From assembly GCA_025453495.1 (NCBI GenBank), contig JALOQM010000001.1, forward strand, positions 155,161 to 219,160: 64,000 nt of DNA, in the 5' to 3' direction. Source of the stretch: Minisyncoccota bacterium. Lineage in GTDB: Bacteria > Patescibacteriota > Minisyncoccia > Phycocordibacterales > UBA9973. Shown piece after piece: positions 3,826-64,000 of this stretch (positions are counted from its first letter, which is position 1; each line of letters opens with the position of its first letter). The notes under the pieces were generated by a model. It did no database searches. It was not told where the DNA came from and saw nothing but the letters and a program-made list of their open reading frames with translations. The translations under genes were made by a program, and so were the position numbers.

Positions 3826-5076
3826 ATGCATGACCCGTATGCGGAATTTACTAAGCATGTTCTGAAAAATGGACTTGAAGTCCATTTTCAATCCTTGAAT
3901 TGTCCATGGATCAGAATAGAAATCGTCGTTCACAGTGGTGGACGAGAAGATCCAGTAGCGATACCTGGACTTGCTCACTTCGTAGAACACCTCGTTAGTC
4001 AAAATATTCCTAACAGAGAATTTAATCATGTAAGAGAGTTTTTTGAAAACTGCGGCGGTTCGGCTCATTTTGGTACCATAGACTATCTATCGACTCAATA
4101 TGGTTTCTTTATTCCAGCTGATCTCGCTATTCTCCGTGAGGTGCTCGAAATTTTTGGTTCAATGCTACTCCAAGCAAGAATTGAAAAGGACATTGAACGC
4201 GAGAGAGAAGTAATCTCACGTCAATTTAATGAAAAATATCCAATTGCCGAAATACTAGAGCTTCAAATAGATATGTACAGAACTCTCTTCAAAGGACATC
4301 GACTTGAAACATGGAATGCACCAATTGGTCGCCCGGAAGGATTTCTTTCGGCAACACAAGGTGACTTACAAAATTTCTACGATACACACTATGTTCCAGC
4401 AAATATGAGCCTAGTTATTATCAGTGGTATCAAAATTGCAGAGATGATAGCTGAACTTGAAAAGAGTCCGCTTGGAATCAAGAAAGATGGTAATCGGAAT
4501 CCAATTTCTAAGGGATGTAATAAGCCTTTAATTTCCGAGCAAAAAACAAGAACCCTAAAGTTTTCTGATTTTTCTAACCTTACGGTTAACCAAATAACAT
4601 ATAGAGTAACATGGGCTCTTCCACCTTCCTTTCACGGACAAGTCTGTAGAATTTTTAGTTTGGTTCTTGATGAGATTTTGTTTAGTGAAATTCGTGAAAA
4701 ACGAAGTCTTACCTACGATATCCATACTTCATATACGTCTTTTCAAGATATATACGAGTATACGATTGTTGGAAGAATTAATCCTGATGCCTCATCATAC
4801 ATTGAAGAACTTGTATATGAATGTATCTCGTTGGTTTCATCAAGACGTGAGTTATTTGATCGAAAATGTAAGTCACTCAAGCAGAGATGTTTTATGGTTG
4901 ATCTTGTTGGGTGGGAATTAGCTCGATTCGCAGCTGAAGATTTAATTGTCCGTCATCGAATTCTTCTAATACAGGAAGGTTTAGATGAATTGAATGGAGT
5001 GACATTTGACATGATTGTTGCATTTGCAACATTTCTTGCTTCTGCACCAAAGTACACATTTATCACGGTTCCATAA
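3826..5076 (+). CDS. M16 (pitrilysin/insulinase) family zinc peptidase
   Basis: HFVEHL inverted zinc-binding motif (HxxEH) near the N-terminus; 416 aa. Confidence 0.7.
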   Translation: MHDPYAEFTKHVLKNGLEVHFQSLNCPWIRIEIVVHSGGREDPVAIPGLAHFVEHLVSQNIPNREFNHVREFFENCGGSAHFGTIDYLSTQYGFFIPADLAILREVLEIFGSMLLQARIEKDIEREREVISRQFNEKYPIAEILELQIDMYRTLFKGHRLETWNAPIGRPEGFLSATQGDLQNFYDTHYVPANMSLVIISGIKIAEMIAELEKSPLGIKKDGNRNPISKGCNKPLISEQKTRTLKFSDFSNLTVNQITYRVTWALPPSFHGQVCRIFSLVLDEILFSEIREKRSLTYDIHTSYTSFQDIYEYTIVGRINPDASSYIEELVYECISLVSSRRELFDRKCKSLKQRCFMVDLVGWELARFAAEDLIVRHRILLIQEGLDELNGVTFDMIVAFATFLASAPKYTFITVP

Positions 5077-5095
5077 AAAAGTAATGATACAACAA

Positions 5096-5133
5096 AGACC
5101 GCCGAGGTTAAACACTCGACGGTCTCTTTTATT
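5096..5133 (+). terminator. Rho-independent terminator after the M16 peptidase gene
   Basis: GACCGCCGAG...CTCGACGGTC hairpin (one mismatch) followed by TTTTATT. Confidence 0.5.
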
Positions 5134-5134
5134 G

Positions 5135-5206
5135 TGCCCTCGCCAGGAATCGAACCTGGATCGCAAGCTCCGCAAGCTAGCATTCTATCCATTAAACTAC
5201 GAGGAC
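5135..5206 (-). tRNA. tRNA-Arg (anticodon read as GCG; one U-U mismatch in the anticodon stem)
   Basis: Minus-strand sequence GTCCTCGTAGTTTAATGGATAGAATGCTAGCTTGCGGAGCTTGCGATCCAGGTTCGATTCCTGGCGAGGGCA. Acceptor 7 bp, D-loop with GG, T-loop TTCGATT, anticodon loop TTGCGGA. CCA is not encoded. Confidence 0.7.
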
Positions 5207-5253
5207 GATTTTTTCTCGAACGGAGTTATATTAGCACAGCCTTGATTTTGAGG

Positions 5254-5805
5254 CTAGAAGCCAAGGTAGTCCATAATTTTGTGAGCTGTTGGCTCATCCC
5301 TATGCTCTTCTGGGAGATACACAGAGAGTACTTCACGTACACGAACTGGATCAGTGTCACCAAGCGGCACACTGATGAGCGGCACTACTGAACGGTTTGA
5401 CATAACAAAGAGAATACTCTCAGCTTCTTTCTCTAGAATAAAAAATGATTTCAATCTTGCGTAGGGATATTTTTCTCGTCCAAGCTCGACATCTTTTGCA
5501 GTAATTTTAAATAGGATCGTTTCAGGTGAGCGGACAGCAAGAAATCCCAAAACCAAGGCAGCAAGTATGATGAATATTGCGAAAAGATAATTTTTATAGA
5601 TGATCGCGGTAACTGCGCTTGCGACAGCAATGACACCAAGCGCCCAAAACCAGTCGACTGATCGATTTTTCTCACGATATTCTGGAGCTGACCATTCGAG
5701 TGTTGGTTTTTCTTCCATACATACTAACTGTAGCAAATCGTTTTCCGAAAGACTAGGTACTATACAAAACAAAAAGCCCGTAAGGGCTTTTTGTTTTAGT
5801 GCCAT
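5254..5805 (-). CDS. Hypothetical membrane protein
   Basis: 183-aa ORF with two adjacent TM helices (WFWALGVIAVASAVTAIIY..LFAIFIILAALVLGFLAV); the true start may be internal (MEEKPTLEW). Confidence 0.4.
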   Translation of the reverse strand: MALKQKALTGFLFCIVPSLSENDLLQLVCMEEKPTLEWSAPEYREKNRSVDWFWALGVIAVASAVTAIIYKNYLFAIFIILAALVLGFLAVRSPETILFKITAKDVELGREKYPYARLKSFFILEKEAESILFVMSNRSVVPLISVPLGDTDPVRVREVLSVYLPEEHRDEPTAHKIMDYLGF

Positions 5806-22718: not shown

Positions 22719-25700
22719 TTATTCACTTGTGCCAGAAAGGGCATTACCAATATTTTTCAATGTCGACTTTACACCTCCTAATGCGTTTTGCAAAGGGCCT
22801 GAGAGACGAGTATCCGGGCGAACGTGTAAATCAAGACTATAGTTTGCGTCTTTCGCATAACTTACAAAATCTTTCATTTGGTTTGTGTAATTCAGACGTG
22901 CAACATTTTTAACTTCCATGAGAGATTTTTTTGAGTGATCCAATCCATCGGGTATACGATAGCTAGCAGTTCCAGTAGCGGATTCTATTCTTTCAGTATT
23001 TTTTACAATACCGCTGGCAAGTTCGCCCGCTCTTCCTTTCGCTGCATTTTCGGCAATATCACCTAATACTTTACCTTTTGGCACTTCTCCTGCGGTAACA
23101 GCGCCAAGTATTGCCATAGGATAGTTTCCTTGCTTTGCATCAGTAATAGCTTGAGAAAGTCCGTATTGGCCAACAGGCGTTGTAAGTGATTGCAAGAATG
23201 ATGTAATTTGTGGAGCATTCATTGCGATATACGCCGCAGCAAAAATAAGTTCTCCTGCAAATTTACCACTTGCATCGCTCATCGTAATCGGATTATTCCT
23301 TCCGTATGAATAGCTGTTCAGTGACTGCGGATCGCTCAGGATACTCGTCATATCCCTGCCCGACAGTGCTTTTGTCGGTTTTTCGTCACCAATAGTTAAA
23401 AATACCGGATCCTGAGAAATAAACTTCCCAACATTCCCCTTGTAGTAACGCGCATTCAAGTAATCGAGTCCTGTATCGTTGTCATGAATCTGCCCCACAT
23501 ACTTTCTCTGTTCATTATACGCCCCAGACGAGATGCGGGATTCGCCGAATGGGTAATAATCGAGTTGCTGAGAAATTGCACCTGAGGCGTCAGTGACGGC
23601 GGTAGTTGAACCGAGGTGATCGGTATGGATATAATACGGCGTCACTGTGACCGTCGGATTAGTAACAGTTTCGATCGTGGCGACAAGGGTGCTTCCTGCA
23701 TAGACTTGCTTGGTCTTCTTCGTACCGTCATCGTTGTAATACTTGTTCGGGTATGAGATGTCAGTCGTGCCTGTAACATAGCGGACGCGGTTACCTTCGT
23801 GGTCGTACCAGTAGTTTGCGGTCACTGAGCCGTCAGTACTCGAAACAAGCTGATCGCGGTAGTTCCAGGTATGCGTGAACGTGCCGTCTGACGTCAGATT
23901 GCCGTCATTGTCGTACGTGCGAGTAATACTGTTAATTTTTGTCGCAGCATGCGGATTCGCATACCCGGTGCCGGCATAGACGTATGCGCCCGCTGGACCA
24001 GAGAGCAGATTGCCGAGCGCATCGTAAGCGAATGAATGCGTGTAGTCACCGCCGCTTGCCGTGCCGGTAATGACAGCGTCAGTCAGACGATAGAGTGCGT
24101 CATATGAATACGTAGCGGTCTTTGCAGTATCAGTATCGGATGCATCATCAAGTTCGGTGATATTGCCGACCGGATCATACACATATGCGAAATCCTGCAC
24201 ATGACGGGTCGAATTCGTCGTCAAACGATTGGTTAGGCGGTAGAGCGCTGAAGCAGCATAGGTGTTCATCGTCGTCACGCCGTTCGCATCATTCTGCGTC
24301 TGGACCTGATCCGTCGGACTGTAGTCGAAGTTAGTAATGAGCGCAGTGAACGTGCGCGCAGACGGTTCCCTACGATCAACTGATTCGAGCAAACCGGCAG
24401 TATTGTAGGTGTAGCGAATCTCGGACATATCGGGATAGACGACTGAGGATATATTCCCCTGTCGATCGTAGAACGTGGACGTCGTATAGGTGTTTCCGTT
24501 GATGACCTTGATTTCGTTGACGACCGTGCCTCTCGAATTGTAGAGGTAGGATGTGTCCGCTCCGAGAAGCATGGTCACTGAGCAGAGTTTGCCCGTACCA
24601 TTCGTGCAGCTTGAGTACGAATACGCAATATCCGTGTCGGTGGTTGCAGTGTTGTCTTCCGAAGTGACCTGATTGACGTCGTTATAGGCGTAGTTTGTCG
24701 TCAGTGCGTTCGGACTTACTGTCTGAATAATGTTTCCTGCATCGTCATACGTATATGTCCATATGCCATAGGTTGCATCAGACACAGCGTGCGTGTCTTG
24801 CGCAGTCAGACGACGATCGAGGCCGTCATACGTGAAATTGCGGACGTTCCCGAGCGCATCGGTTATCTTCGTAAGTTTGCCGTTCAAATTCCATTCGTAG
24901 TTCGTGGTATAAGCGCTTGCAGTCGCATAGAATTCGTCGACAGCGGACAAGTTCTCATATGCGTCGTGATAATAACGCTTCATGTTTCCTGCTGGATCAG
25001 TGACAGTGGTCATCCAGTCGTCGTAGGCATTCGTCGTCGTACCAACTGCGTTCGTCGATGTGAGTACGCGACCAATTGGGTCATATGCGTACGTAGTGTA
25101 GAGCGCCGTAGTGGTTGTCGGTGATGTACGAGCAGTACCCGTGCTTGTATAGCGGAGTGATTCTTTCAAGGTCTTGCCGCGAGCATCATATGCCTTATCG
25201 CTCACGTTGAAAGTATTTGATGCTTCCGCTTCTTTGCGCTCCTGGATCAGGCGACCGAGGCCGTCGAAGTACTGATAGGTATCTGCCGTTGTCGAGGTGT
25301 CGAGATAGTCGGTGCGCTGTACTTTTACCGCACCGGAAGTGTCGGTATATGCATATGCCGTTTTTGCAACTGGAGAATACGGTGAAGTACTATCGGGAAT
25401 TTTTTCAGTGAGCACGCGATCAAGGCCGTCATAAACAGTTTGGTAGACGAAGCTGTTCTGATCGGTCACCTGCTTCGGCTTGCCGAGCGAGTAGTCATAG
25501 ACATACTGCGTCGTATGTGAGAGCGGGTCGGTAACAGTTGTTGGGTAGAGATTATAGGTATCGTATGAATACGAGGTTACCTTTCCACGCGGATCGGTAT
25601 CAGAAGTGACAAGACCATATGAGTTATACGCTTTCTGACTATTAATGTAGGTTGTCGACGCTTTCCAATCTTCAACCTTAGTCTGATTACCTTTGTTTAC

Positions 25701-28700
25701 CGATCCATATGAAAGCGTATCGTAATAGTATTTCGACTCTTTGACGGTGGTGGAAGATGCGTCAGTCACTGTGCTGATCTTTGGCACCACCACTCGGGTC
25801 GTCGTGTTTGCCGCATACACATTTGTCGTGGTGCGCTTGTCGGAACCGGTATCAGTGAATGAGCCGTCTGATGCCACTGCATTTACCCTACCCCATTCGG
25901 TCTTCGTCAGGAGCGAGCCGTCCGTGTTGTCATAGGTATATTCGGTCGCAGTATCGGCATGATCTGAATCGCCATCATACGTCAGCACAGTCTGGCGCGC
26001 GAGCTTCACGAAATCGTGGTCAGTGCCGATGTTGTAGTGATCCCACTTATTGACCGTCAGGCGATAGAGATTGTTCGAGCTGTCACGTTCTTCGACACGG
26101 TACGGCTGACCTATTTTTGCAGGGATATCGTTGTATTCACCGTTTGATGTATCAGTGCCATTACCCTGGTGGTAAAAGGTCTTCGTGACATTGCCGACTT
26201 CATCGGTTGTCGTGACGATATTGAAGCCAGCGAGCGTTCTATGTCCGTCTGAGTAGTACTGATACTTGCCGTCCTGATACGAGTACTGTCTCGTTCCGGT
26301 CGTGCCGAATGCGTCGTTCGTCGTGATGTCTTTGACGACTGTTATGGACTGGGACGGACTTCGGGTTATCGGATTCTTGTCATTAATAGGCTGTTCCTTA
26401 TATGTAATGGACATCGAGCCGCCCGCAGGAGCAGTAATGGTTGAAAGATAATCGGATTTTGAACCGGTATTGAGCCAGACGGCATTTGGGTTCGTGATGT
26501 TTGTACTGTTGTTATAGGCAAATATCCAGTCTGGTAGTCCGTCGTTATTTAGATCAGAAAGTCTTGTGTCATAATCAAATCCTACCTGATTTCCATTTGG
26601 ATAGGTTGGCATGGTCCAGCTTGCAAGTAGCCAACCTGTCCCAGTACTAAGCCAAACCTTGTTAGGATTGATAGTGTTTGTGTTGTTGTTATAAGCATTT
26701 ATCCAATCTGGCAGATTATCTCCATTAATATCTGTAAGCTGGGTATCGTAGGCAAATCCGACATGATTACCATTTGTGTATGTAGGCATGGTCCAAGAAA
26801 CTGCTGTCCACCCAATTCCTGTATTCAGCCAGACAGTATTTGGACTGGCTGCTGTTGGGGAATTGTTGTCATATCCATGAATAAAGTCAACAAGACCATC
26901 GGCGTTTACGTCAATAAGTTTGTTCGTATAATGAAATCCAACCTGATTGCCTGTTAGATAAGTCGGCATCGTCCAACTTGCTGATGTCCAGCCAGAGCCG
27001 GTATTCAACCATACTGCATTCGGATTCGTGGTACTCGTATTATTATTAAAGGCATAAATAAAATCTGGAAGAATATCTCCGTTTATATCCACGAGTTGCG
27101 TGTTTGTATGAAACCCGACCTGATTGCCGCTTGGATATAGCGGCATGTTCCACGATGCGTTCGACCAGCCCGATCCAGTGTTAAGCCAGACCGTATTTGG
27201 GTTTACTGTGCTTGTATTGTTGTTGTAAGCATAGATCCAGTCAGGTAAACCATCTCCATTGAGATCGATCAACTGCGTATTTACTGTATGAAAACCTACC
27301 TGGTTACCACTTGGATAAGTCGGTATAGTCCATGATGCTGATGACCAACCCGATCCATTATTGAGCCAGACCGCATTCGGATTCGCGGTGCTTGTATTGT
27401 TATTATAAGCATAGATCCAATCGGGTAGACCATCGCCATTGAGATCAATCAACTGGGTATTCAAAGTATGAAAGCCCACTTGCCCGCCAGTTGGAAATGT
27501 CGGAAACGTCCATGACGCGAGCGACCAGCCAGATCCGGTATTAAGCCACACAGCGTTTGGATTCGTGGTGCTCGTATTGTTATTGAGCGCATACACGAAG
27601 TCCGGCAAATTATCACCGTTTACATCCACAAGCTGCGTTGCGGAAGCGAACCCTACTTGTCGGAGGTCCGGATAGACAGGCATCGTCCATGACGCGAGCG
27701 ACCATTCATCATCCACAGTCTGATAATCGAATGACATCGCCGGGAGTACCGTCGGCGTGCCGCTTTCGTCATAACCCGTTTCGGTAATTGAAGAAAGGAG
27801 CGAACGATTCTGGTTGTGTCCAGGTAGGTATACAAGGTCGTACTTGCGAGTATTTGTACCGTTAATTTTTGCAACAATGCTCGTAACAAGCGAAGCCGGA
27901 GCGACTGAGAAAGCAGGATTATAGACAGTCACGACATCGGGGCGCGAGCCTAACGTAAAGTCGATTTCGAAAATTCCGTCAGTGGTTCCAAAACCAGTGT
28001 AAAAAATCTTCGATGGATAAATCTGCCCTGCGCTTTTGGTATATTCATAGCGGACGAAGTTATCATTCGTATCGCGCGTCTCTTCAAGCATCCACTTATA
28101 GATATTTCCCGAGTTGTCTTGGCGAGCTTGGGCGTTTGCACCGAAGGTATATTTCACACCCTTTTTATCGGTTACCACCCATCCGTTGGAGACGCGTTCG
28201 TATCGCAAGAAATCTCCCTTTTCAGAACGAGGTGCGTAAAGATTTGATCCGAGCGGAACAAGCTCCCCAGAGAGAGATGACGAAAACACATCGCCTGTCG
28301 TATAGAGGTCTTCCGTACCGGTGCGATTGACGCGCTCGATGTATGGAATATTGACGGACCAGCCGTAGCCGACGACAGAGTCGTTAACTTGATTCTCGCT
28401 ATTGTACATAAGCGAGAGATCAGGCGTCATGTCATTTCTGCCTGGTGGAACCTGAATCTTGTAGGTATGGACGAATGCCCCTGTCAGGTTGTCGATTTCA
28501 GGAGAAAGCAATCCTTTTGAATCCTGCGGCGGAAGCGGATCAGGATCTACTTCTGGCGCTTGAGGGGCTGGCGGCTCTATCGGCGGAGCTGCTTGCTGGT
28601 TTTCTTCAGAAACCTGAGTTTCAGTTTCTTCGCTAACGGTTGGCGTCTCAGTCTGTACTTCTGGCTCAGGAGTTATAACAGTTTCCTGAGTTGCTTCCGT

Positions 28701-28847
28701 ATTCGCTGTTTCTTCAGCGAATACGGTCAGGACAGGAGAAAAAAAGATTGAAAATACAAGAACGCATACCGCCAGCTTCCTAAAAAGACCGGATGCTGAT
28801 AATGGGTTTTTTGCGATATGCATATATTGTTTTTCTTGTTTTAACAA
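22719..28847 (-). CDS. Giant secreted SpvB-domain / FG-GAP beta-propeller / RHS (YD-repeat) polymorphic toxin (Tc-toxin TcB-TcC-like fusion) with a variable C-terminal tip
   Basis: 2042 aa. Signal peptide, then a Pro/Glu-rich linker, then an SpvB-like region (...GYGWSVNIPYIERVNRTGTEDLYTTGDVF...). About eight repeats of VDxNGDxLPDxxYAYNNNTSTxNPNAVWLNTGSGW (FG-GAP-like). Many YD repeats (YTYDALGN, YAYDPIGR, FTYDGLDRR, YTYDDAGN...). An RHS-core-like DYYPFGESR...YYKGNVGKFISQDP...NNPITMSDASGKF. A C-terminal domain of about 200 aa containing IPDGLDH...EVKNV, a possible PD-(D/E)xK motif. Confidence 0.85.
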   Translation of the reverse strand: MLKQEKQYMHIAKNPLSASGLFRKLAVCVLVFSIFFSPVLTVFAEETANTEATQETVITPEPEVQTETPTVSEETETQVSEENQQAAPPIEPPAPQAPEVDPDPLPPQDSKGLLSPEIDNLTGAFVHTYKIQVPPGRNDMTPDLSLMYNSENQVNDSVVGYGWSVNIPYIERVNRTGTEDLYTTGDVFSSSLSGELVPLGSNLYAPRSEKGDFLRYERVSNGWVVTDKKGVKYTFGANAQARQDNSGNIYKWMLEETRDTNDNFVRYEYTKSAGQIYPSKIFYTGFGTTDGIFEIDFTLGSRPDVVTVYNPAFSVAPASLVTSIVAKINGTNTRKYDLVYLPGHNQNRSLLSSITETGYDESGTPTVLPAMSFDYQTVDDEWSLASWTMPVYPDLRQVGFASATQLVDVNGDNLPDFVYALNNNTSTTNPNAVWLNTGSGWSLASWTFPTFPTGGQVGFHTLNTQLIDLNGDGLPDWIYAYNNNTSTANPNAVWLNNGSGWSSASWTIPTYPSGNQVGFHTVNTQLIDLNGDGLPDWIYAYNNNTSTVNPNTVWLNTGSGWSNASWNMPLYPSGNQVGFHTNTQLVDINGDILPDFIYAFNNNTSTTNPNAVWLNTGSGWTSASWTMPTYLTGNQVGFHYTNKLIDVNADGLVDFIHGYDNNSPTAASPNTVWLNTGIGWTAVSWTMPTYTNGNHVGFAYDTQLTDINGDNLPDWINAYNNNTNTINPNKVWLSTGTGWLLASWTMPTYPNGNQVGFDYDTRLSDLNNDGLPDWIFAYNNSTNITNPNAVWLNTGSKSDYLSTITAPAGGSMSITYKEQPINDKNPITRSPSQSITVVKDITTNDAFGTTGTRQYSYQDGKYQYYSDGHRTLAGFNIVTTTDEVGNVTKTFYHQGNGTDTSNGEYNDIPAKIGQPYRVEERDSSNNLYRLTVNKWDHYNIGTDHDFVKLARQTVLTYDGDSDHADTATEYTYDNTDGSLLTKTEWGRVNAVASDGSFTDTGSDKRTTTNVYAANTTTRVVVPKISTVTDASSTTVKESKYYYDTLSYGSVNKGNQTKVEDWKASTTYINSQKAYNSYGLVTSDTDPRGKVTSYSYDTYNLYPTTVTDPLSHTTQYVYDYSLGKPKQVTDQNSFVYQTVYDGLDRVLTEKIPDSTSPYSPVAKTAYAYTDTSGAVKVQRTDYLDTSTTADTYQYFDGLGRLIQERKEAEASNTFNVSDKAYDARGKTLKESLRYTSTGTARTSPTTTTALYTTYAYDPIGRVLTSTNAVGTTTNAYDDWMTTVTDPAGNMKRYYHDAYENLSAVDEFYATASAYTTNYEWNLNGKLTKITDALGNVRNFTYDGLDRRLTAQDTHAVSDATYGIWTYTYDDAGNIIQTVSPNALTTNYAYNDVNQVTSEDNTATTDTDIAYSYSSCTNGTGKLCSVTMLLGADTSYLYNSRGTVVNEIKVINGNTYTTSTFYDRQGNISSVVYPDMSEIRYTYNTAGLLESVDRREPSARTFTALITNFDYSPTDQVQTQNDANGVTTMNTYAASALYRLTNRLTTNSTRHVQDFAYVYDPVGNITELDDASDTDTAKTATYSYDALYRLTDAVITGTASGGDYTHSFAYDALGNLLSGPAGAYVYAGTGYANPHAATKINSITRTYDNDGNLTSDGTFTHTWNYRDQLVSSTDGSVTANYWYDHEGNRVRYVTGTTDISYPNKYYNDDGTKKTKQVYAGSTLVATIETVTNPTVTVTPYYIHTDHLGSTTAVTDASGAISQQLDYYPFGESRISSGAYNEQRKYVGQIHDNDTGLDYLNARYYKGNVGKFISQDPVFLTIGDEKPTKALSGRDMTSILSDPQSLNSYSYGRNNPITMSDASGKFAGELIFAAAYIAMNAPQITSFLQSLTTPVGQYGLSQAITDAKQGNYPMAILGAVTAGEVPKGKVLGDIAENAAKGRAGELASGIVKNTERIESATGTASYRIPDGLDHSKKSLMEVKNVARLNYTNQMKDFVSYAKDANYSLDLHVRPDTRLSGPLQNALGGVKSTLKNIGNALSGTSE

Positions 28848-28961
28848 TCTTAATAATATGACTTGATTCTATATGTTAGACGCCAAAAGTAAACTGATCA
28901 GTCGACTCGAGTATATACATAAGTTCTAAAGGAAAACTAAAGTTTATGTGAAGTCCGACTC

Positions 28962-57501: not shown

Positions 57502-58191
57502 ATGAAAAAAGGGAAACTCATAGTCATCGACGGGACAGACGGATGCGGTAAGGCGACACAAGCTGCGCTTTTAGTCAGTCTTCTTAAAAAAGAAGGATAT
57601 AAAGTAAAAACAATAGATTTTCCTCGTTACTATGATAATTTTTTTGGAAAATTAATTGGTGAATGTCTGGCGGGTAAGCATGGTAATTTTCTTGCCGTCG
57701 ATTCGCATATTGCATCTGTATTATATGCAGCCGACCGATTTGAATCAGGTGCAATCATAAAGAAGTGGGTCGAACAAGGATATATAGTTGTTACTGATCG
57801 ATACGTCAGCTCAAGTCAAATTCATCAAGCAGCAAAAATTAAGAATAAAAAAGAAAGAAAAAAGTTTCTTGATTGGCTAGACCAAATGGAATATGAAGTA
57901 TTTAAGATTCCTAAGCCAGATATGGTTATGTACCTTGATGTCTCAGTAGAGCTGAGTCAAAAGTTAATGAGAAACAAGGATCAGGCCTACAAGAAGAGAT
58001 ATCTCGAGGGGTCTTTTGATCAGGCAGAAAATGATATAAAGCACCTAACTGATTCAAAGAAAAATTCACGCGATTTGATTCGTGAGTATGGCTGGGTGCA
58101 GATTGATTGCACAAGTAGAGGCAAGATGTTATCAAGAGAAGATATTGCGGAGAAAATCTACGCAAAAATAAAGCCGCTAGTGAAGAAATAA
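57502..58191 (+). CDS. tmk: Thymidylate kinase
   Basis: MKKGKLIVIDGTDGCGKATQ (P-loop) ...VVTDRY... LID region. Confidence 0.9.
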   Translation: MKKGKLIVIDGTDGCGKATQAALLVSLLKKEGYKVKTIDFPRYYDNFFGKLIGECLAGKHGNFLAVDSHIASVLYAADRFESGAIIKKWVEQGYIVVTDRYVSSSQIHQAAKIKNKKERKKFLDWLDQMEYEVFKIPKPDMVMYLDVSVELSQKLMRNKDQAYKKRYLEGSFDQAENDIKHLTDSKKNSRDLIREYGWVQIDCTSRGKMLSREDIAEKIYAKIKPLVKK

Positions 58192-59879
58192 TGTCAATTA
58201 CCAACCAACTCAAAACAATAATCATAGAACTTTTGACCGAACTCGGGATTGAAAATCCGAGCGTATCCTTTGAGCATCCGACCGAGCTTGTGCATGGTGA
58301 CTATTCGACGAATGTCGCGATGGTATATGCCAAAGAACTCAAGAAAAATCCTCGTGTACTTGCAGAAGAGGTCAAGAAATACATACAGAATCAGAAACCA
58401 GATACGATTGAGAATATAGAAATCGCTGGTCCAGGGTTTATTAATTTCTTTCTCTCAAAGCAGTTTTTTGTCGATAGTTTGAAGCACATTATTCGCGAAG
58501 GTGATCAGTTTGGTAGCAATCAAGATGGCGCTGGGAAGAAAGTACTAGTCGAGTATTCGTCACCAAATATCGCAAAACCCTTTACCGTTGGCCATTTACG
58601 CTCGACGATTATCGGTGACGCGGTCGCGAATTTGCTTGCTTTTAGCGGCTATACGGTTATTCGTGACAATCATCTTGGCGATTGGGGGACACAGTTTGGC
58701 AAACTGATTGTCGCGATCAAGAAGTGGGGAGATTTTGAGGCAATCAAAAAAAGCCAAACACCGATCAAAGAGCTCGTCGATTTGTATGTGAAATTCCATG
58801 ATGAGGCAGAAAAAGACGCTTCACTTGAGGATGAAGGACGCGCATGGTTTACCAAGCTCGAACAAGGCGACAGTGACGCGCGTGCGCTGTGGCAGATGTG
58901 TGTCGCACTTTCGATGCAAGAATTTGATCGTATCTATGCACGGCTTCGTGTGAGTGCATTTGATACTGCTCTTGGTGAGAGTTTTTTTGAAGATAAGATG
59001 GCTGCGGTGCTTGTTGATGTAAAAGCAACAAATATTGCCAAAGAATCCGAAGGCGCATATCTTATCTTTTTTGACGAAGAAAAGACGAAATTACCACCAC
59101 TTATGCTCACTAAGAAAGACGGTTCATCGCTCTACGCCCTTCGCGATCTTGCCGCTGATCGCTATCGCAGAGAGACATATGGTACTGATATCACAATCAT
59201 CAATGAAGTCGGTGCTGAGCAGTCGCAGTATTTCCGTCAGATATTTGAAGCAGAAGAACTGCTCGGGTATTTCCCGAAGTCACAGCGCGTGCATATCGGA
59301 CATGGGCTCTATCGCTTTGCGGAAGGGAAGATGTCGACACGCAAAGGCAATGTCATTTGGCTTGATGATATATTGAACGAAGCAGAAAAGCGCGCTGGTG
59401 AACTCAATGAAGCAACAAAGACTGATGTCGCACTCGCGGCGATTAAGTTCAATGATCTCAAACGTGAAGCAATCAAAGATATTGTCTTTGATTGGGATGA
59501 AATACTCAACCTCCATGGCGACACTGGACCGTATCTGCAGTATGCGCATGCACGTTGTGTATCAGTGCTTGAGAAAGCACGTGAGTCGCTTATTGAGCCG
59601 GTTGCAACAGATACACTACAGCAAGCAGGGTCAGTAGAGAAACTTGTCTATCGTTTTCCGGAAATAGTCTCTCGTGCGACTAGTGAGTATGCACCGCATT
59701 ACATTGCGACGTATCTCATCGAGCTTGCGCATGCGTTTTCTACTTACTATGCTGAGACAAAAATTGTTGATCCTGAAGATCATCTTTCTCCGTATAAAGT
59801 CGGTCTCACAAAGGCAGTCAAAATAGTTTTAAAAAATGGGCTGTCTCTCCTTGGTATTCCGACACCAGAGAAGATGTAA
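58191..59879 (+). CDS. argS: Arginyl-tRNA synthetase
   Basis: 562 aa; ...SSPNIAKPFTVGHLRSTIIGDAV... (HIGH-type motif) and C-terminal DALR anticodon-binding region. Confidence 0.9.
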   Translation: MSITNQLKTIIIELLTELGIENPSVSFEHPTELVHGDYSTNVAMVYAKELKKNPRVLAEEVKKYIQNQKPDTIENIEIAGPGFINFFLSKQFFVDSLKHIIREGDQFGSNQDGAGKKVLVEYSSPNIAKPFTVGHLRSTIIGDAVANLLAFSGYTVIRDNHLGDWGTQFGKLIVAIKKWGDFEAIKKSQTPIKELVDLYVKFHDEAEKDASLEDEGRAWFTKLEQGDSDARALWQMCVALSMQEFDRIYARLRVSAFDTALGESFFEDKMAAVLVDVKATNIAKESEGAYLIFFDEEKTKLPPLMLTKKDGSSLYALRDLAADRYRRETYGTDITIINEVGAEQSQYFRQIFEAEELLGYFPKSQRVHIGHGLYRFAEGKMSTRKGNVIWLDDILNEAEKRAGELNEATKTDVALAAIKFNDLKREAIKDIVFDWDEILNLHGDTGPYLQYAHARCVSVLEKARESLIEPVATDTLQQAGSVEKLVYRFPEIVSRATSEYAPHYIATYLIELAHAFSTYYAETKIVDPEDHLSPYKVGLTKAVKIVLKNGLSLLGIPTPEKM

Positions 59880-60533
59880 ATGAAAAAAAAGAAAGTAATA
59901 ATTTTTGATATGGATGGAGTGCTTTTTGACTCTATACCATTTGCGGAGAAATATTTCCTTGAGAGGCACCCCGGGGTTACATCGAAAATGTATAGAGAGC
60001 TTTCCTCTGGAAATTATCTTGAAGAAGTTAAAAAATATTCTAATTTCAAAAAAAACTACACGCCGGAAGATGAAAAAAAATCAGCTGAATGGTATACGGA
60101 ACAGAAAAAAAGAACTCCTTTATTTAAAGGTATTGAAGAGTTATTAGCAGACTTGCATGCCAAAAGTTACATACTTGCACTAAATACGAGTGCGTATAAA
60201 GAGAAGTGTCTCCCACTCCTTATTCATTCAAGAATTGAGCAAATGTTTGATTTTATTGGAACTGCAGAAGTCGCCAAAACAAAGGTTGAAAAATTCAATT
60301 TAATTCTACGTAAATATAAAGTTGGGAAAGAGGATATCGTTTTTGTAACTGATTCCTTAGGAGATCTTAAGGAGGCGTATATATCACATATTCCCACAAT
60401 TGCTGTTACCTGGGGTGTTCATGACAGAAAGCATTTTCTTGATCCACAATATTCAAATTTGATCAAAATTGTGGATACGGTTGAAGATTTGAGAGATACT
60501 ATCTTTGGTGTTTTTGCGTTAGAAAAAATATAG
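59880..60533 (+). CDS. HAD-superfamily hydrolase (beta-phosphoglucomutase-like)
   Basis: VIIFDMDGVLFDS (DxDG motif I); 217 aa. Confidence 0.8.
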   Translation: MKKKKVIIFDMDGVLFDSIPFAEKYFLERHPGVTSKMYRELSSGNYLEEVKKYSNFKKNYTPEDEKKSAEWYTEQKKRTPLFKGIEELLADLHAKSYILALNTSAYKEKCLPLLIHSRIEQMFDFIGTAEVAKTKVEKFNLILRKYKVGKEDIVFVTDSLGDLKEAYISHIPTIAVTWGVHDRKHFLDPQYSNLIKIVDTVEDLRDTIFGVFALEKI

Positions 60534-60544
60534 CTTGCAAATTC

Positions 60545-60820
60545 TCTCATGCACGCTAGTATGAGGGTACAAGCGACGACGAGGGTATCACCTCGTCTGC
60601 CCGCGCCAAAAGCGGGTAAAGCTTCGGGAAGAACTGTCCGCCGACGCCAAAGCTTCGGCGAGACACAATAGACCCCGACGGGTAAGCCCGTTAGCGCTGT
60701 AAATAAGCATCCGCCTATGCGAAAGCTACAGCGTGATAAAACAAGGTGGTACCGCGGGATGAAACTCGCCCTTGGATTATGATGGTTATCGTAATTCGTG
60801 GGCGATTTTTATTTTTTTTA
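60545..60820 (+). promoter_or_regulatory. T-box riboswitch leader (Ile-specific, specifier AUC) with intrinsic terminator, upstream of ileS
   Basis: Hairpin GACGAGG-GTATCAC-CCTCGTC with AUC followed by a purine in the loop (~60578-60598). Conserved T-box sequence AAGGTGGTACCGCGG at ~60743-60757. Terminator CTCGCCC...GGGCGA followed by T10 (~60765-60820). Confidence 0.6.
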
Positions 60821-60823
60821 TAT

Positions 60824-63800
60824 ATGGAAAACAAACAAAATCAAACAGACAAATCAACAACAGCACTTCGTTCCGCTGACGCAAAATCCGCTATGGCTGA
60901 CAGGGAGGAAGCAATATTGAAGCTTTGGGAGGAAAAAGATATTTTTACAAAGACTCTTGAAAAAGAATCACCAAAAGGAGAATTCGTTTTCTACGAAGGA
61001 CCACCAACTGCAAATGGCAAGCCAGGCATTCATCATCTCGAAGGTCGTGCCTTTAAAGATGCGATCCCGCGCTACAAGACAATGCAAGGGTATCACGTGC
61101 GTCGCAAAGGTGGCTGGGATACGCATGGTCTACCAGTGGAACTTCAAGTCGAAAAGAAGCTCGGATTGAAATCGAAAAAAGAGATTGAAGCCTATGGTAT
61201 TGCGAAGTTTAACCAGGAATGTAAAGAGAGCGTTTGGGAATATCGCGACATCTGGGAGAAATTTACGACTCGTATCGGGTATTGGGTGGATCAGAAAGAT
61301 CCATATGTAACCTATGACAATGGATATATTGAATCCTTGTGGAGTGTGCTTGCGCATGTCGAGAAAAAAGAACTTCTCTATAAGGATTACAAAGTGGTGC
61401 CGTGGTGTCCTCGCTGTGGCACTGCGCTTTCTTCACACGAGCTCGCGCAGGGTTATGAAGATGTGAAGGATTTGTCTGTGTATGTGAAGTTTAAAGTCGC
61501 TGGACAAGAGAATACCTATTTGCTTGCATGGACGACGACACCATGGACATTGCCTGGCAACGTCGCGCTTGCGGTGGGTAAGGATGTTGAATATGTTGTT
61601 GTTCAGCATATTGGCACAACTGTTTTTACTACCGATGATGGAAATTACAAACCTCCTACTTTAGAGAAACTAATTTTATCAAAAGATGTCTTTGTAAAAG
61701 AAGATAAAAAGGTTAATCCTACCGACCCACAAAGTAAAAAGTATTTTTTTGGTGATCTCAATAATATTTATGAAATTGTTGGTGAACATAAAGGAAGTGA
61801 TCTCATAGGTTTCTCATATATACCACTCTATCCATTTCTCAAAGACAATCTGCCTGAAAGCGAAAAAGCCAAGCTCGATCGCGCATTCAAAATCTATACT
61901 GCTGATTTTGTCACGACGACGGACGGCACTGGTATTGTGCATATTGCGCCAATGTACGGCAATGACGACTTCGATCTTGGGACAAAAGAAGGGCTCCCGA
62001 AATACCACATCGTAAACGAAGATGGCACATTTAAGTCGGAGACGGGATTTCTTACTGGACAATTTGTAAAGGAAGAAACTGTTGCAGTTTCTGTAATCAA
62101 AGATCTTGCGTCACGTGATCTCCTTTTCAAAAAAGAAAAATACGAGCACAGCTATCCGCATTGCTGGCGTTGTAAGACACCGCTTATCTACTACGCTCGT
62201 GATTCGTGGTATATTCGCATGTCATCACTCAAGAATACGCTTGTAGAAGAAAACAAGTCGATCAATTGGGAGCCTGCGCATATACAAGACGGTCGTTTCG
62301 GTGAGTGGTTGAAGGACATAAAAGATTGGGCTATTTCACGTGAACGCTACTGGGGTACACCGCTTCCGATTTGGGAAACTCTAGATCGAAGTGAGCGTAT
62401 TGTTGTCGATTCGCTCGAGACACTTAAAAAGTATGTCAAAAAATCAGGTAATACCTACTTTGTCATGCGGCACGGTGAATCTGAGAACAATCTCACACGG
62501 ACGATTTCTGTCGTTGCTGATGCGCCCGATCATCTGACTGAGAATGGAAGAGTGCAAGTGCGTACATCAGCAAAGCAGTTGCAGCAAGAAGGATTTGATC
62601 TTATTATCGCATCACCATTTGTACGCACGAGAGAAACAGCAGCAATTATGGCAGAAGTACTTGGTATTCCAAATGAATCAGTTGTCATTGATGAACGTCT
62701 CAGCGAAATGAATCCAGGTGACTTTGGTGGTACAACATGGAAGGAATATCACGAACGTATCCCAAAGACAGTAGAGAATTTCAAAACAGCGCTTCCTGGT
62801 GGTGAATCATATCAACAAGTAAAACAGCGTATTGGTGAAATGTTGTATGGTCTTGAAGAAAAATATCAAAATAAAAAGATACTGTTGGTTACCCATGGAA
62901 GTCCTTTTTGGACACTGTCTGCAGTGATCAATGGACATACTCCACAACAAGTTATTGACATGCTTGCAATGGATGATGAATTGCGTTTTATTAAAAATGC
63001 AGAACATAGAAAACTAGATTTTGCTCCATTGCCACACAATGCGGAGTATGAGCTTGATCTGCATCGTCCTTTCATTGATGACATCGTGCTTGTAAAAGAT
63101 GGTAAAGAGTATCACCGTGTAAAGGAGGTAATGGATGTGTGGTTTGATTCAGGTGCTATGCCGTTTGCACAAGACCATTATCCTTTTGCAAATAAAGAAT
63201 GGGTAGAAGGTCCAGGGTATCCAGCAGACTTTATATCTGAAGGTGTTGATCAGACACGTGGATGGTTTTATACACTGCACGCTGTCGGTATCCTTATGGG
63301 CAGAGGATATGCGTATAAAAATGTCATCTGTCTCGGACATATTCTCGATGCAGAAGGCAAGAAAATGTCTAAGTCACTCGGAAATGTTGTCGATCCGTGG
63401 ATTATGATGGACAAATACGGTGTCGATACACTGCGTCTGTGGATGTACTCAGTCAATCAACCAGGTGATTCAAAGAATTTCGATGAGCGGACAGTTGCGG
63501 AACTCCACAACAAAATTTTTAACCTGCTATATAATGTCGTTTCATTTTATGAGCTCTATCGTGATACATCTCTTGAGGATACGGCCTTGTCGACATCAGT
63601 GCATGTGCTTGATAGATGGATCACGGCACGTCTTGATGAGCTCACCGAAAAAGTAACAAAAAATCTTGACGCATTTAAACTCCTTGAACCAGTGCGCGAA
63701 ATCCGCACGTTCATCGATGATCTTTCAACATGGTATGTCCGCCGTTCACGTGATCGTATGAAAGATGGCGATACGGCAGCAAAGCAGACACTGTATGCTG

Positions 63801-64000
63801 TGCTCAAAAAACTCATCATGATTATGGCGCCGTTTGCCCCATTTGCCACAGAAGACCTCTGGCAGAAACTAAAGACTACAAACGACGTCGAAAGTGTGCA
63901 TTTGGCAAAGTGGCCTGATACAACTGAGTTTTCTCAAGAAGAGATAGCTCGTATGCAAGAAGTCCGTATGGTTGTCTCAAGTGGTCTTGAAGCACGACAA
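60824..64000 (+). CDS. ileS: Isoleucyl-tRNA synthetase, 3' end beyond window; carries an in-frame inserted domain of about 190 aa resembling a histidine phosphatase (PGAM superfamily)
   Basis: MENKQNQ...PPTANGKPGIHHLEGRA (HIGH)...WAISRERYWGTPLPIWE ... [..NTYFVMRHGESENNLTRTI...LLVTHGSPFW...] ...DLHRPFIDDI...DVWFDSG...GKKMSKSLGN (KMSKS). Single open frame with no stops; start is approximate to within 1 nt. Confidence 0.85.
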   Translation, partial: MENKQNQTDKSTTALRSADAKSAMADREEAILKLWEEKDIFTKTLEKESPKGEFVFYEGPPTANGKPGIHHLEGRAFKDAIPRYKTMQGYHVRRKGGWDTHGLPVELQVEKKLGLKSKKEIEAYGIAKFNQECKESVWEYRDIWEKFTTRIGYWVDQKDPYVTYDNGYIESLWSVLAHVEKKELLYKDYKVVPWCPRCGTALSSHELAQGYEDVKDLSVYVKFKVAGQENTYLLAWTTTPWTLPGNVALAVGKDVEYVVVQHIGTTVFTTDDGNYKPPTLEKLILSKDVFVKEDKKVNPTDPQSKKYFFGDLNNIYEIVGEHKGSDLIGFSYIPLYPFLKDNLPESEKAKLDRAFKIYTADFVTTTDGTGIVHIAPMYGNDDFDLGTKEGLPKYHIVNEDGTFKSETGFLTGQFVKEETVAVSVIKDLASRDLLFKKEKYEHSYPHCWRCKTPLIYYARDSWYIRMSSLKNTLVEENKSINWEPAHIQDGRFGEWLKDIKDWAISRERYWGTPLPIWETLDRSERIVVDSLETLKKYVKKSGNTYFVMRHGESENNLTRTISVVADAPDHLTENGRVQVRTSAKQLQQEGFDLIIASPFVRTRETAAIMAEVLGIPNESVVIDERLSEMNPGDFGGTTWKEYHERIPKTVENFKTALPGGESYQQVKQRIGEMLYGLEEKYQNKKILLVTHGSPFWTLSAVINGHTPQQVIDMLAMDDELRFIKNAEHRKLDFAPLPHNAEYELDLHRPFIDDIVLVKDGKEYHRVKEVMDVWFDSGAMPFAQDHYPFANKEWVEGPGYPADFISEGVDQTRGWFYTLHAVGILMGRGYAYKNVICLGHILDAEGKKMSKSLGNVVDPWIMMDKYGVDTLRLWMYSVNQPGDSKNFDERTVAELHNKIFNLLYNVVSFYELYRDTSLEDTALSTSVHVLDRWITARLDELTEKVTKNLDAFKLLEPVREIRTFIDDLSTWYVRRSRDRMKDGDTAAKQTLYAVLKKLIMIMAPFAPFATEDLWQKLKTTNDVESVHLAKWPDTTEFSQEEIARMQEVRMVVSSGLEARQ

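Follow-up and report, generated by a model that had tools for sequence, protein, structure and literature searches.

A histidine phosphatase domain nested in a Patescibacteria isoleucyl-tRNA synthetase, and its free-standing, fused and inserted relatives at class Ia synthetase genes

The isoleucyl-tRNA synthetase (IleRS) encoded at the end of the DNA stretch analysed here carries, in frame and inside its CP3 subdomain, a branch-1 histidine phosphatase domain. The stretch, which we call the window, comprises 64,000 nt from a Minisyncoccota bacterium (assembly GCA_025453495.1, contig JALOQM010000001.1, positions 155,161-219,160, forward strand); window coordinates are used below, and window features lie on its plus strand unless stated otherwise. 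The nested His_Phos_1 domain spans residues 541-737 (about 197 residues; 62444-63034), as delimited by Pfam, structure matches, AlphaFold and Foldseek. It belongs to a Patescibacteria-specific phosphatase family whose members are embedded in synthetases, fused to them or free-standing. Aminoacyl-tRNA synthetases are among the best-studied enzymes, and their accessory catalytic modules known so far are editing hydrolases; the one described here belongs to a class for which our literature searches found no earlier description. A first-pass annotation, made from the sequence alone, had proposed an IleRS with an in-frame branch-1 histidine phosphatase insert, and profile matches, the predicted fold, the catalytic residues and insert-bearing homologues all bear it out. 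The same annotation called the architecture unusual, but this is not a single-gene oddity: the link with arginyl-tRNA synthetase (ArgRS), IleRS and valyl-tRNA synthetase (ValRS) extends across Patescibacteria.

The gene, ileS (60824-64000), runs past the window end and encodes a type-2 IleRS, as identified by profile, structure-library and protein-database matches. Translation from the ATG at 60824 gives 1059 codons with no stop up to the window end, so the frame is indeed uninterrupted. The complete product of 1196 residues is deposited at NCBI as MCU0660217.1, is 100% identical over the entire visible length and comes from a Candidatus Pacebacteria/Paceibacterota metagenome-assembled genome, on a 251-kb contig. 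With the TIGR00392 ileS profile the score is 860 bits, above the cut-off of 621.4, despite the insert and the C-terminus cut by the window. Among solved structures the open reading frame (ORF) is closest to Priestia megaterium IleRS2 (8c8w; E = 2.4e-224), and its CP1 editing domain matches 1wk8 and 1wny. Its class I signature has the non-canonical form GIHH (residues 68-71, in PGIHH; 61025-61036), with H70 and H71 invariant across the insert-bearing clade, and the KMSKS loop (residues 847-851; 63362-63376) is seen both in the sequence and in the family alignment. A G/AXHH signature in IleRS2 is a functional variant tied to mupirocin hyper-resistance (PMC10485003); judged by its sequence, the window protein, with GIHH in an IleRS2 body, falls in this type-2 class. 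Some 45 residues of the CP1/editing region (~262-313; ~61607-61762) lack a counterpart in 8c8w, lie mostly outside the family consensus and are modelled poorly, with predicted local distance difference test (pLDDT) values below 50 in parts.

The alignment to 8c8w delimits the insert. Residues 313-538 of the window protein correspond to 265-478 of the solved chain and residues 738-1054 to 480-802, leaving about 199 query residues (nt ~62438-63034) unmatched; by this measure the span first assigned to the insert, 62440-63020, was right to about 15 nt. Pfam His_Phos_1 (PF00300) matches residues 546-710 (62459-62953) at E = 9.1e-36; the score is 123.8 bits, where the gathering threshold is 21.7. 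The insert also directly matches the solved histidine phosphatases PspA (4ij5; 1.9e-11) and PhoE (1h2e; 3.3e-11). The catalytic residue set is complete: the RHG motif of R549, the nucleophile H550 and G551 (62468-62476); R601, the second phosphate-binding arginine, in SPFVRTRET (62624-62626); E628, the presumed general acid/base (62705-62707); and H691, the second catalytic histidine, in LLVTHG (62894-62896). The RHG, the second histidine in LLVTHG and the KMSKS downstream all stand where the first reading had located them. Chance RHG and THG motifs in an ordinary CP3 or zinc subdomain are ruled out by the Pfam match together with the predicted fold. An intein-like element (conserved serine at the start, ‘HN’ after the end) was likewise considered and rejected, as the whole insert is predicted to fold as His_Phos, with neither a Hint fold nor a +1 nucleophile; the ‘PLPHN’ that lies 3' of the insert is native CP3 sequence, and the residue after it is A or E rather than a nucleophile.

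The predicted fold agrees with the profile matches. Modelled alone by AlphaFold, the insert reaches a pLDDT of 94.3 and a predicted template-modelling score (pTM) of 0.90; in the model of the full protein (mean pLDDT 81.7, pTM 0.69) the insert region stands at about 85-95. Foldseek places the insert model among small branch-1 phosphatases with probability 1.0, TM scores of 0.67-0.75 and 22-30% identity, the neighbours being the riboflavin-pathway HFP (9mmh), PspA (4ij5/4ij6), mycobacterial hydrolases (6s2q), PhoE (1h2e), GpgP (Rv2419c; 4qih) and CobC (6e4b). The PF00300 score, the full catalytic set and the predicted alpha/beta fold thus make this a branch-1 histidine phosphatase, and we infer that it is an active phosphomonoesterase working through a phospho-His550 intermediate. 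None of the NCBIfam equivalog cut-offs is reached by the insert. Its best score there is 101 bits against 326, to the Rv2228c-type RNase HI/CobC-like acid phosphatase (PRK07238), followed by 84.1 against 162.9 for CobC (TIGR03162), 75.5 against 225 for dPGM_arch (NF038349), 65.5 against 350 for PspA (NF045917), 41.3 against 74.5 for SixA (TIGR00249) and 25.6 against 81.7 for pgm_1 (TIGR01258), the second phosphoglycerate mutase model.

The phosphatase sits between DWAISRERYWGTPLPIW... and ...LHRPFIDD...DVWFDSG, which is the CP3 subdomain in yeast/Candida IleRS nomenclature. The first-pass annotation held that other IleRS proteins have only a short linker here, and in this it was mistaken: the segment between WGTPLPIW and LHRPFID is CP3, which is a zinc knuckle in Thermus thermophilus IleRS and whose fold varies among IleRS (PMC7191050). 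In the window, the CP2-3 linker (DWAISRERYWG) and the first half of CP3 (TPLPIWETLDRSERIVVDSLETLKKYVKK) occupy 62324-62443, and the second half of CP3 (HNAEYELDLHRPFIDDIVLVKDGKEYHRVKEVM) leads into the DVWFDSG strand at 63035-63154; both are assigned from the sequence and the 8c8w match, the former also from the relatives' consensus, with names following PMC7191050 and PMC7955072. The insert starts about 30 residues past the CP2-3 linker, in the second half of the Rossmann fold. The linker (ARDWNVSRNRYWG in yeast) lines the tRNA CCA pocket and contributes to the site that holds reveromycin A, a compound described as a partial mimic of tRNA CCA-end binding (PMC7955072). Most relatives retain CP3 cysteines on either side of the insert (consensus IWxCxDCGK ... 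LVCxCGG). The window IleRS lacks them, with ETLDRSE (62375-62395) and LVKDGKE (63089-63109) in their place, and the zinc site has apparently been lost in the source species. Set against IleRS2 8c8w and T. thermophilus IleRS (1ile), the window protein thus shares the Rossmann fold, CP core, CP1 editing, CP2, CP3, anticodon-binding and C-terminal DUF5915 domains, but adds the phosphatase of about 199 residues in CP3 and loses the CP3 zinc cysteines.

The insert is conserved across relatives. PF00300 is present, at the same place, in 120/120 of the closest homologues (60-75% identity, 1118-1270 residues), and the spacing from WGTP..W to DVWFDSG is 257-285 residues in the 86 of these 120 in which both motifs could be located. 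In a scan of GTDB with one genome per species, relatives of the insert region turned up in 387 genomes; the best 80 of those 387, whose loci are compared below, all span the insert and both junctions at the same site and are Patescibacteria, under Nomurabacteria, Paceibacteria, Parcubacteria and Minisyncoccia labels. In 56 full-length sequences S541, N543, Y545, R549, H550, G551, L571, T572, G575, S597, R601, E628 and H691 are invariant. The R, H and G of the RHG motif, the second arginine and the second histidine are also invariant in 38 divergent domains (36-47% identity), of which at least 90% keep the glutamate. The ratio of nonsynonymous to synonymous substitution rates (dN/dS), taken from the least diverged locus pairs, is 0.04-0.25 for the insert and 0.04-0.16 for the IleRS body, and the insert is therefore under purifying selection about as strong as that on the synthetase itself, even as it diverges faster (38-55% against 50-75% identity). 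Because the insert is conserved across relatives, keeps its catalytic set and has a low dN/dS, both a misassembly and a decaying passenger are excluded. The GC content at third codon positions (GC3), 0.28 in the insert against 0.39 in the flanking ileS, might speak for an assembly chimera of separate IleRS and phosphatase genes, but such a chimera is effectively refuted: both junctions are in frame, an identical protein is independently deposited, the 120 closest homologues and the best 80 species genomes all have the insert in the same position, and overall GC is similar (0.41 in the insert, 0.43-0.44 in the remainder of the gene).

The insert alone was searched exhaustively against 1.84 billion representative proteins. 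At E<1e-30 there were 38 matches, and at E<1e-10 there were 1148. The best 150, sorted by IleRS body and Pfam content, comprise many divergent insert-bearing IleRS (body identity as low as about 35%), IleRS with two domains, ValRS, one ArgRS and free-standing proteins of about 190 residues. The free-standing form is tied to the same genes. In all six of the complete free-standing relatives that were looked up, the gene immediately follows argS and/or immediately precedes an ileS without insert (938-984 residues), and its stop and start codons often overlap or abut those of argS and ileS; at one locus (L089) argS ends at 4996, the phosphatase runs from 5001 to 5582 and ileS starts at 5573. The family of free-standing proteins has at least 387 clusters, with named members labelled Patescibacteria or just ‘bacterium’. 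They keep the RHG and are annotated merely as ‘histidine phosphatase family protein’ or ‘PhoE’. P0121 and P0122, the two best free-standing matches, proved to be partial genes from contigs of under 1 kb and were set aside; complete proteins of about 190 residues from longer contigs were used instead. At one locus with a free-standing phosphatase (L100, 2682-5609, minus strand), IleRS is encoded as two consecutive ORFs, one of 412 residues cut by the contig end and one of 554 residues that begins at Pfam tRNA-synt_1 position 187, convergent with the argS-phosphatase pair; from the sequence, this ileS may be split or frameshifted.

Fusion to ArgRS is terminal. The C-terminal His_Phos fusion P0254 (L081/L082, 8001-10070) is found on 70-kb contigs in two assemblies, with the fusion point about 5 residues beyond the conserved C-terminal Met, and its neighbourhood, smpB / argS::phosphatase / recO / DUF7619, has the gene order seen at loci with a free-standing phosphatase. 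In ValRS the domain is internal and occurs in 37/119 of the closest homologues (about 1050-1100 residues, on contigs of up to 913 kb, with Moranbacteria and Magasanikbacteria labels), at one of two sites: directly after STLGWP, or within the zinc knuckle of CP3, a position homologous to that of the IleRS insertion. Among these ValRS homologues (P0390-P0487), close relatives about 84% identical in the N-terminal part are without a phosphatase. A second IleRS clade, with the canonical PHYGH motif, carries the domain at three sites, namely CP3, between WFDSG and DQxRGWF, and just after KMSKS; one insert-bearing IleRS of this clade is present in six assemblies, on contigs of up to 1.06 Mb. Taken together, the site positions in ValRS and in both IleRS clades put all internal insertions within the second Rossmann half, around KMSKS.

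Some synthetases carry the domain in tandem, with IleRS proteins that have two and one ValRS fragment (P0131) that has four, and RHG or RHA is kept in all the tandem copies that were checked in IleRS and in this fragment. Two ValRS contigs of low coverage have a TAA in frame: in L094 it falls inside phosphatase copy four, and in L096 it separates the phosphatase from the remaining ValRS. Each might reflect a sequencing error, a split gene or a pseudogene. Neighbour joining of 75 domains gives a star-like tree in which the free-standing and ArgRS-fused forms fall among the IleRS inserts. Such a tree fits a single family, although the number and direction of fusion and insertion events are not resolved by it.

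Known systems offer partial parallels. PhoE, PspA, GpgP, CobC and HFP share the fold, the size of about 200 residues and the catalytic residues of the window domain, but they are free-standing and act on small molecules, whereas the window domain is nested and its free-standing orthologues are operon partners of argS and ileS. The Rv2228c-type protein provides a precedent for fusion of a His_Phos domain to a nucleic-acid enzyme, though there the fusion is terminal and to RNase H. Another IleRS with an extra enzymatic domain is represented by ileS_w_GNAT (NF040702), in which that domain is a GNAT; the window protein scores 341 bits against its cut-off of 1999. The YbaK/ProRS INS, AlaX and DTD-like editing modules, unlike the window phosphatase, are aminoacyl-ester hydrolases with known aminoacyl-tRNA substrates.

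What might a phosphatase do in a synthetase? Repeated recruitment to class Ia synthetases would be explained if its substrate were presented or produced at their synthetic site. In the reading we prefer, which we regard as a real possibility without thinking it probable, the phosphatase would serve as an extra active site alongside the synthetic and CP1 editing sites, stripping off a phosphate-bearing block or product at the class Ia synthetic site. The likeliest target would be a 2'- or 3'-phosphate, cyclic phosphate or pyrophosphate on the tRNA acceptor end, whose removal would make the tRNA chargeable; alternatively, inorganic pyrophosphate (PPi) or AMP released beside the KMSKS loop might be the target. 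The flexible CCA end would reach the phosphatase as a third site, much as it reaches the CP1 editing site. A specific version, in which this third site removes 2'/3'-phosphates, 2',3'-cyclic phosphates or 3'-pyrophosphates left by ribotoxins or toxSAS-type tRNA pyrophosphokinases before charging, is rather unlikely in our estimation. If it were true, ultra-small candidate phyla radiation (CPR) bacteria would have a tRNA end-healing or anti-toxin function built into a synthetase. Aminoacyl-adenylate and Ap4A, both suggested at first reading, have no terminal phosphomonoester and are chemically unlikely substrates under a phospho-histidine mechanism.

In favour of the preferred reading, insertions concentrate near KMSKS and the CCA pocket, and, by analogy, the occurrence of free-standing, fused and inserted forms mirrors that of trans- and cis-editing modules. 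The YbaK/ProRS-INS, AlaX and DTD-like modules, which likewise exist free-standing, fused and inserted in synthetases, are all known for acting on the tRNA 3' end. Charge points the same way in part: the free-standing proteins P0185, P0164, P0264 and P0246, each of about 190 residues, are very basic (net charge +10 to +28, with +28 and +23 among them; isoelectric point 9.5-10.2), as would be expected if RNA must be bound unaided. Several observations pull against an acceptor-end or synthetic-site role. The embedded domains lean slightly to the acidic side, their net charge averaging -5. The nearest solved structures, at 22-30% identity, are all small-molecule phosphatases, and the RNA end-healing phosphatases found in our literature search are of the DxDxT/HAD and metallophosphoesterase types, with no histidine-phosphatase example among them. 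Some of the ValRS copies at the CP3 site have a degenerate RHG (VHS, VHA or AHG). Finally, the attachment points vary, and the one at the ArgRS C-terminus belongs to the anticodon-binding domain; this speaks against a strict geometry. Charge was also considered as a predictor of genomic context and discarded, as acidic and basic free-standing forms both adjoin argS or ileS.

The main rival to a role at the synthetic site is that the domain is a metabolic phosphatase or mutase that hitch-hikes, having been co-transcribed with highly expressed synthetase genes and then fused into them, with no part in aminoacylation. Phosphoglycerate mutase has been reported missing from some Parcubacteria clades, and a dPGM-like activity would fill this gap; the insert matches archaeal-type dPGM (75-102 bits), CobC and PspA models in part, its close structural neighbours all act on small molecules, and a hidden activity of this kind would be missed by gene callers that label the whole protein a tRNA ligase. 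All the equivalog models concerned (dPGM_arch, pgm_1, CobC and PspA) are nevertheless far below their cut-offs, and E628-MNPGDFGG shows no evident counterparts of the dPGM-specific substrate residues that follow the catalytic glutamate (R90/Y92/R116/R117 as numbered in E. coli). Co-expression would also leave unexplained both the repeated internal insertion at several sites near KMSKS in three class Ia synthetases and the tandem arrays, and the RHG is degenerate in some copies. We think this explanation unlikely, yet the one to be taken most seriously among the rivals; were it true, a ‘missing’ central-metabolic enzyme would sit inside a synthetase gene and metabolic reconstructions of CPR bacteria would change. 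A tethered phosphatase might instead clear products, hydrolysing PPi (or AMP) at KMSKS and so pulling amino-acid activation forward in cells whose metabolism is minimal. That the internal insertion sites all lie in the second Rossmann half, immediately around KMSKS, suits this idea, as does the HAD-IA hydrolase, weakly like HAD-type pyrophosphatases, that shares the argS-ileS neighbourhood; but those similarities are far below cut-offs, PPi diffuses freely, so that little would be gained from tethering, and we know of no branch-1 histidine phosphatase that is an inorganic pyrophosphatase. Product clearance is, in our view, improbable.

A regulatory protein phosphatase, dephosphorylating the synthetase or a partner and reversing, for example, inhibition by a HipA-like kinase, would make sense of physical attachment to the target. 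The superfamily includes the protein phosphatases SixA, PGAM5 and Sts-1, and there is a weak match to SixA (41 bits against a cut-off of 74.5), but that model is not reached, no kinase partner was seen in the neighbourhoods examined, and the known targets of HipA and HipT are GluRS, TrpRS and LysRS rather than class Ia enzymes; we give this proposal little credence. Just as little, or slightly less, is due to the idea that the domain is a largely non-catalytic passenger accommodated by insertion-tolerant CP3 and loops, as a structural or tRNA-binding appendage. The insert does evolve faster than the body, the catalytic arginine is lost in some ValRS copies, and the fold of CP3 differs among IleRS (PMC7191050). 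Against this, the catalytic residues are kept across more than 90 sampled IleRS inserts, dN/dS is 0.04-0.25, and the RHG is kept by the free-standing orthologues as well.

Full-text literature searches over about 8 million papers returned no description of an architecture joining an aminoacyl-tRNA synthetase to a histidine phosphatase, and two recent papers on IleRS evolution mention neither a phosphatase nor Patescibacteria. The architecture has been visible in databases all the same, in precomputed Pfam strings and in a Joint Genome Institute (JGI) protein name, ‘valyl-tRNA synthetase/broad specificity phosphatase PhoE’. For the protein studied here, the gene-level label ‘class I tRNA ligase family protein’ conceals the extra, predicted enzymatic activity. 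A phosphatase linked to three synthetases over hundreds of Patescibacteria species points to an unrecognised step connected with tRNA charging in these minimal genomes.

The genes around ileS in the window fit the wider pattern. Upstream lies argS (58191-59879), the conserved partner of ileS by locus comparison, which precedes ileS in most of the 80 embedded-domain loci; elsewhere it is between these two genes that the free-standing phosphatase is found. A second His_Phos gene within about 6 kb is absent from all 80 embedded-domain loci, and the 64-kb window likewise has no second one. The gap between argS and ileS is filled here by a gene for a HAD-IA family hydrolase (59880-60533), whose first base comes right after the argS stop codon. 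About 10 of the 80 related loci encode homologues of this protein (24-32% identity) just downstream of ileS, and a second, unrelated phosphatase family is therefore present in the same neighbourhood. It has a weak likeness, far below cut-offs, to phosphoglycolate phosphatase and to the PpaX (30 bits) and BT2127-like (27.5 bits) pyrophosphatases. The GC3 of the HAD gene (0.28) equals that of the phosphatase insert.

Between the HAD gene and ileS is a T-box-like leader (60606-60815), with a GGUGGUACCGCG box at 60745-60756, a sub-threshold Rfam match and a terminator hairpin. The match to the T-box model RF00230 has 35.2 bits (E = 2.9e-6), below the gathering score of 93, and the Stem I region is much shortened; at gathering thresholds Rfam gives no matches in the interval from 56 to 64 kb. 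The terminator hairpin, followed by a U-run, has a folding energy of -29.3 kcal/mol (z = -4.6), and the GGUGGUACCGCG 12-mer is also found upstream of ileS in 9 related loci. These features suggest a reduced T-box-like element in a CPR bacterium, of a kind that standard Rfam thresholds would overlook. Elsewhere in the window, a long ORF of 2049 residues runs along the minus strand at 22722-28868.

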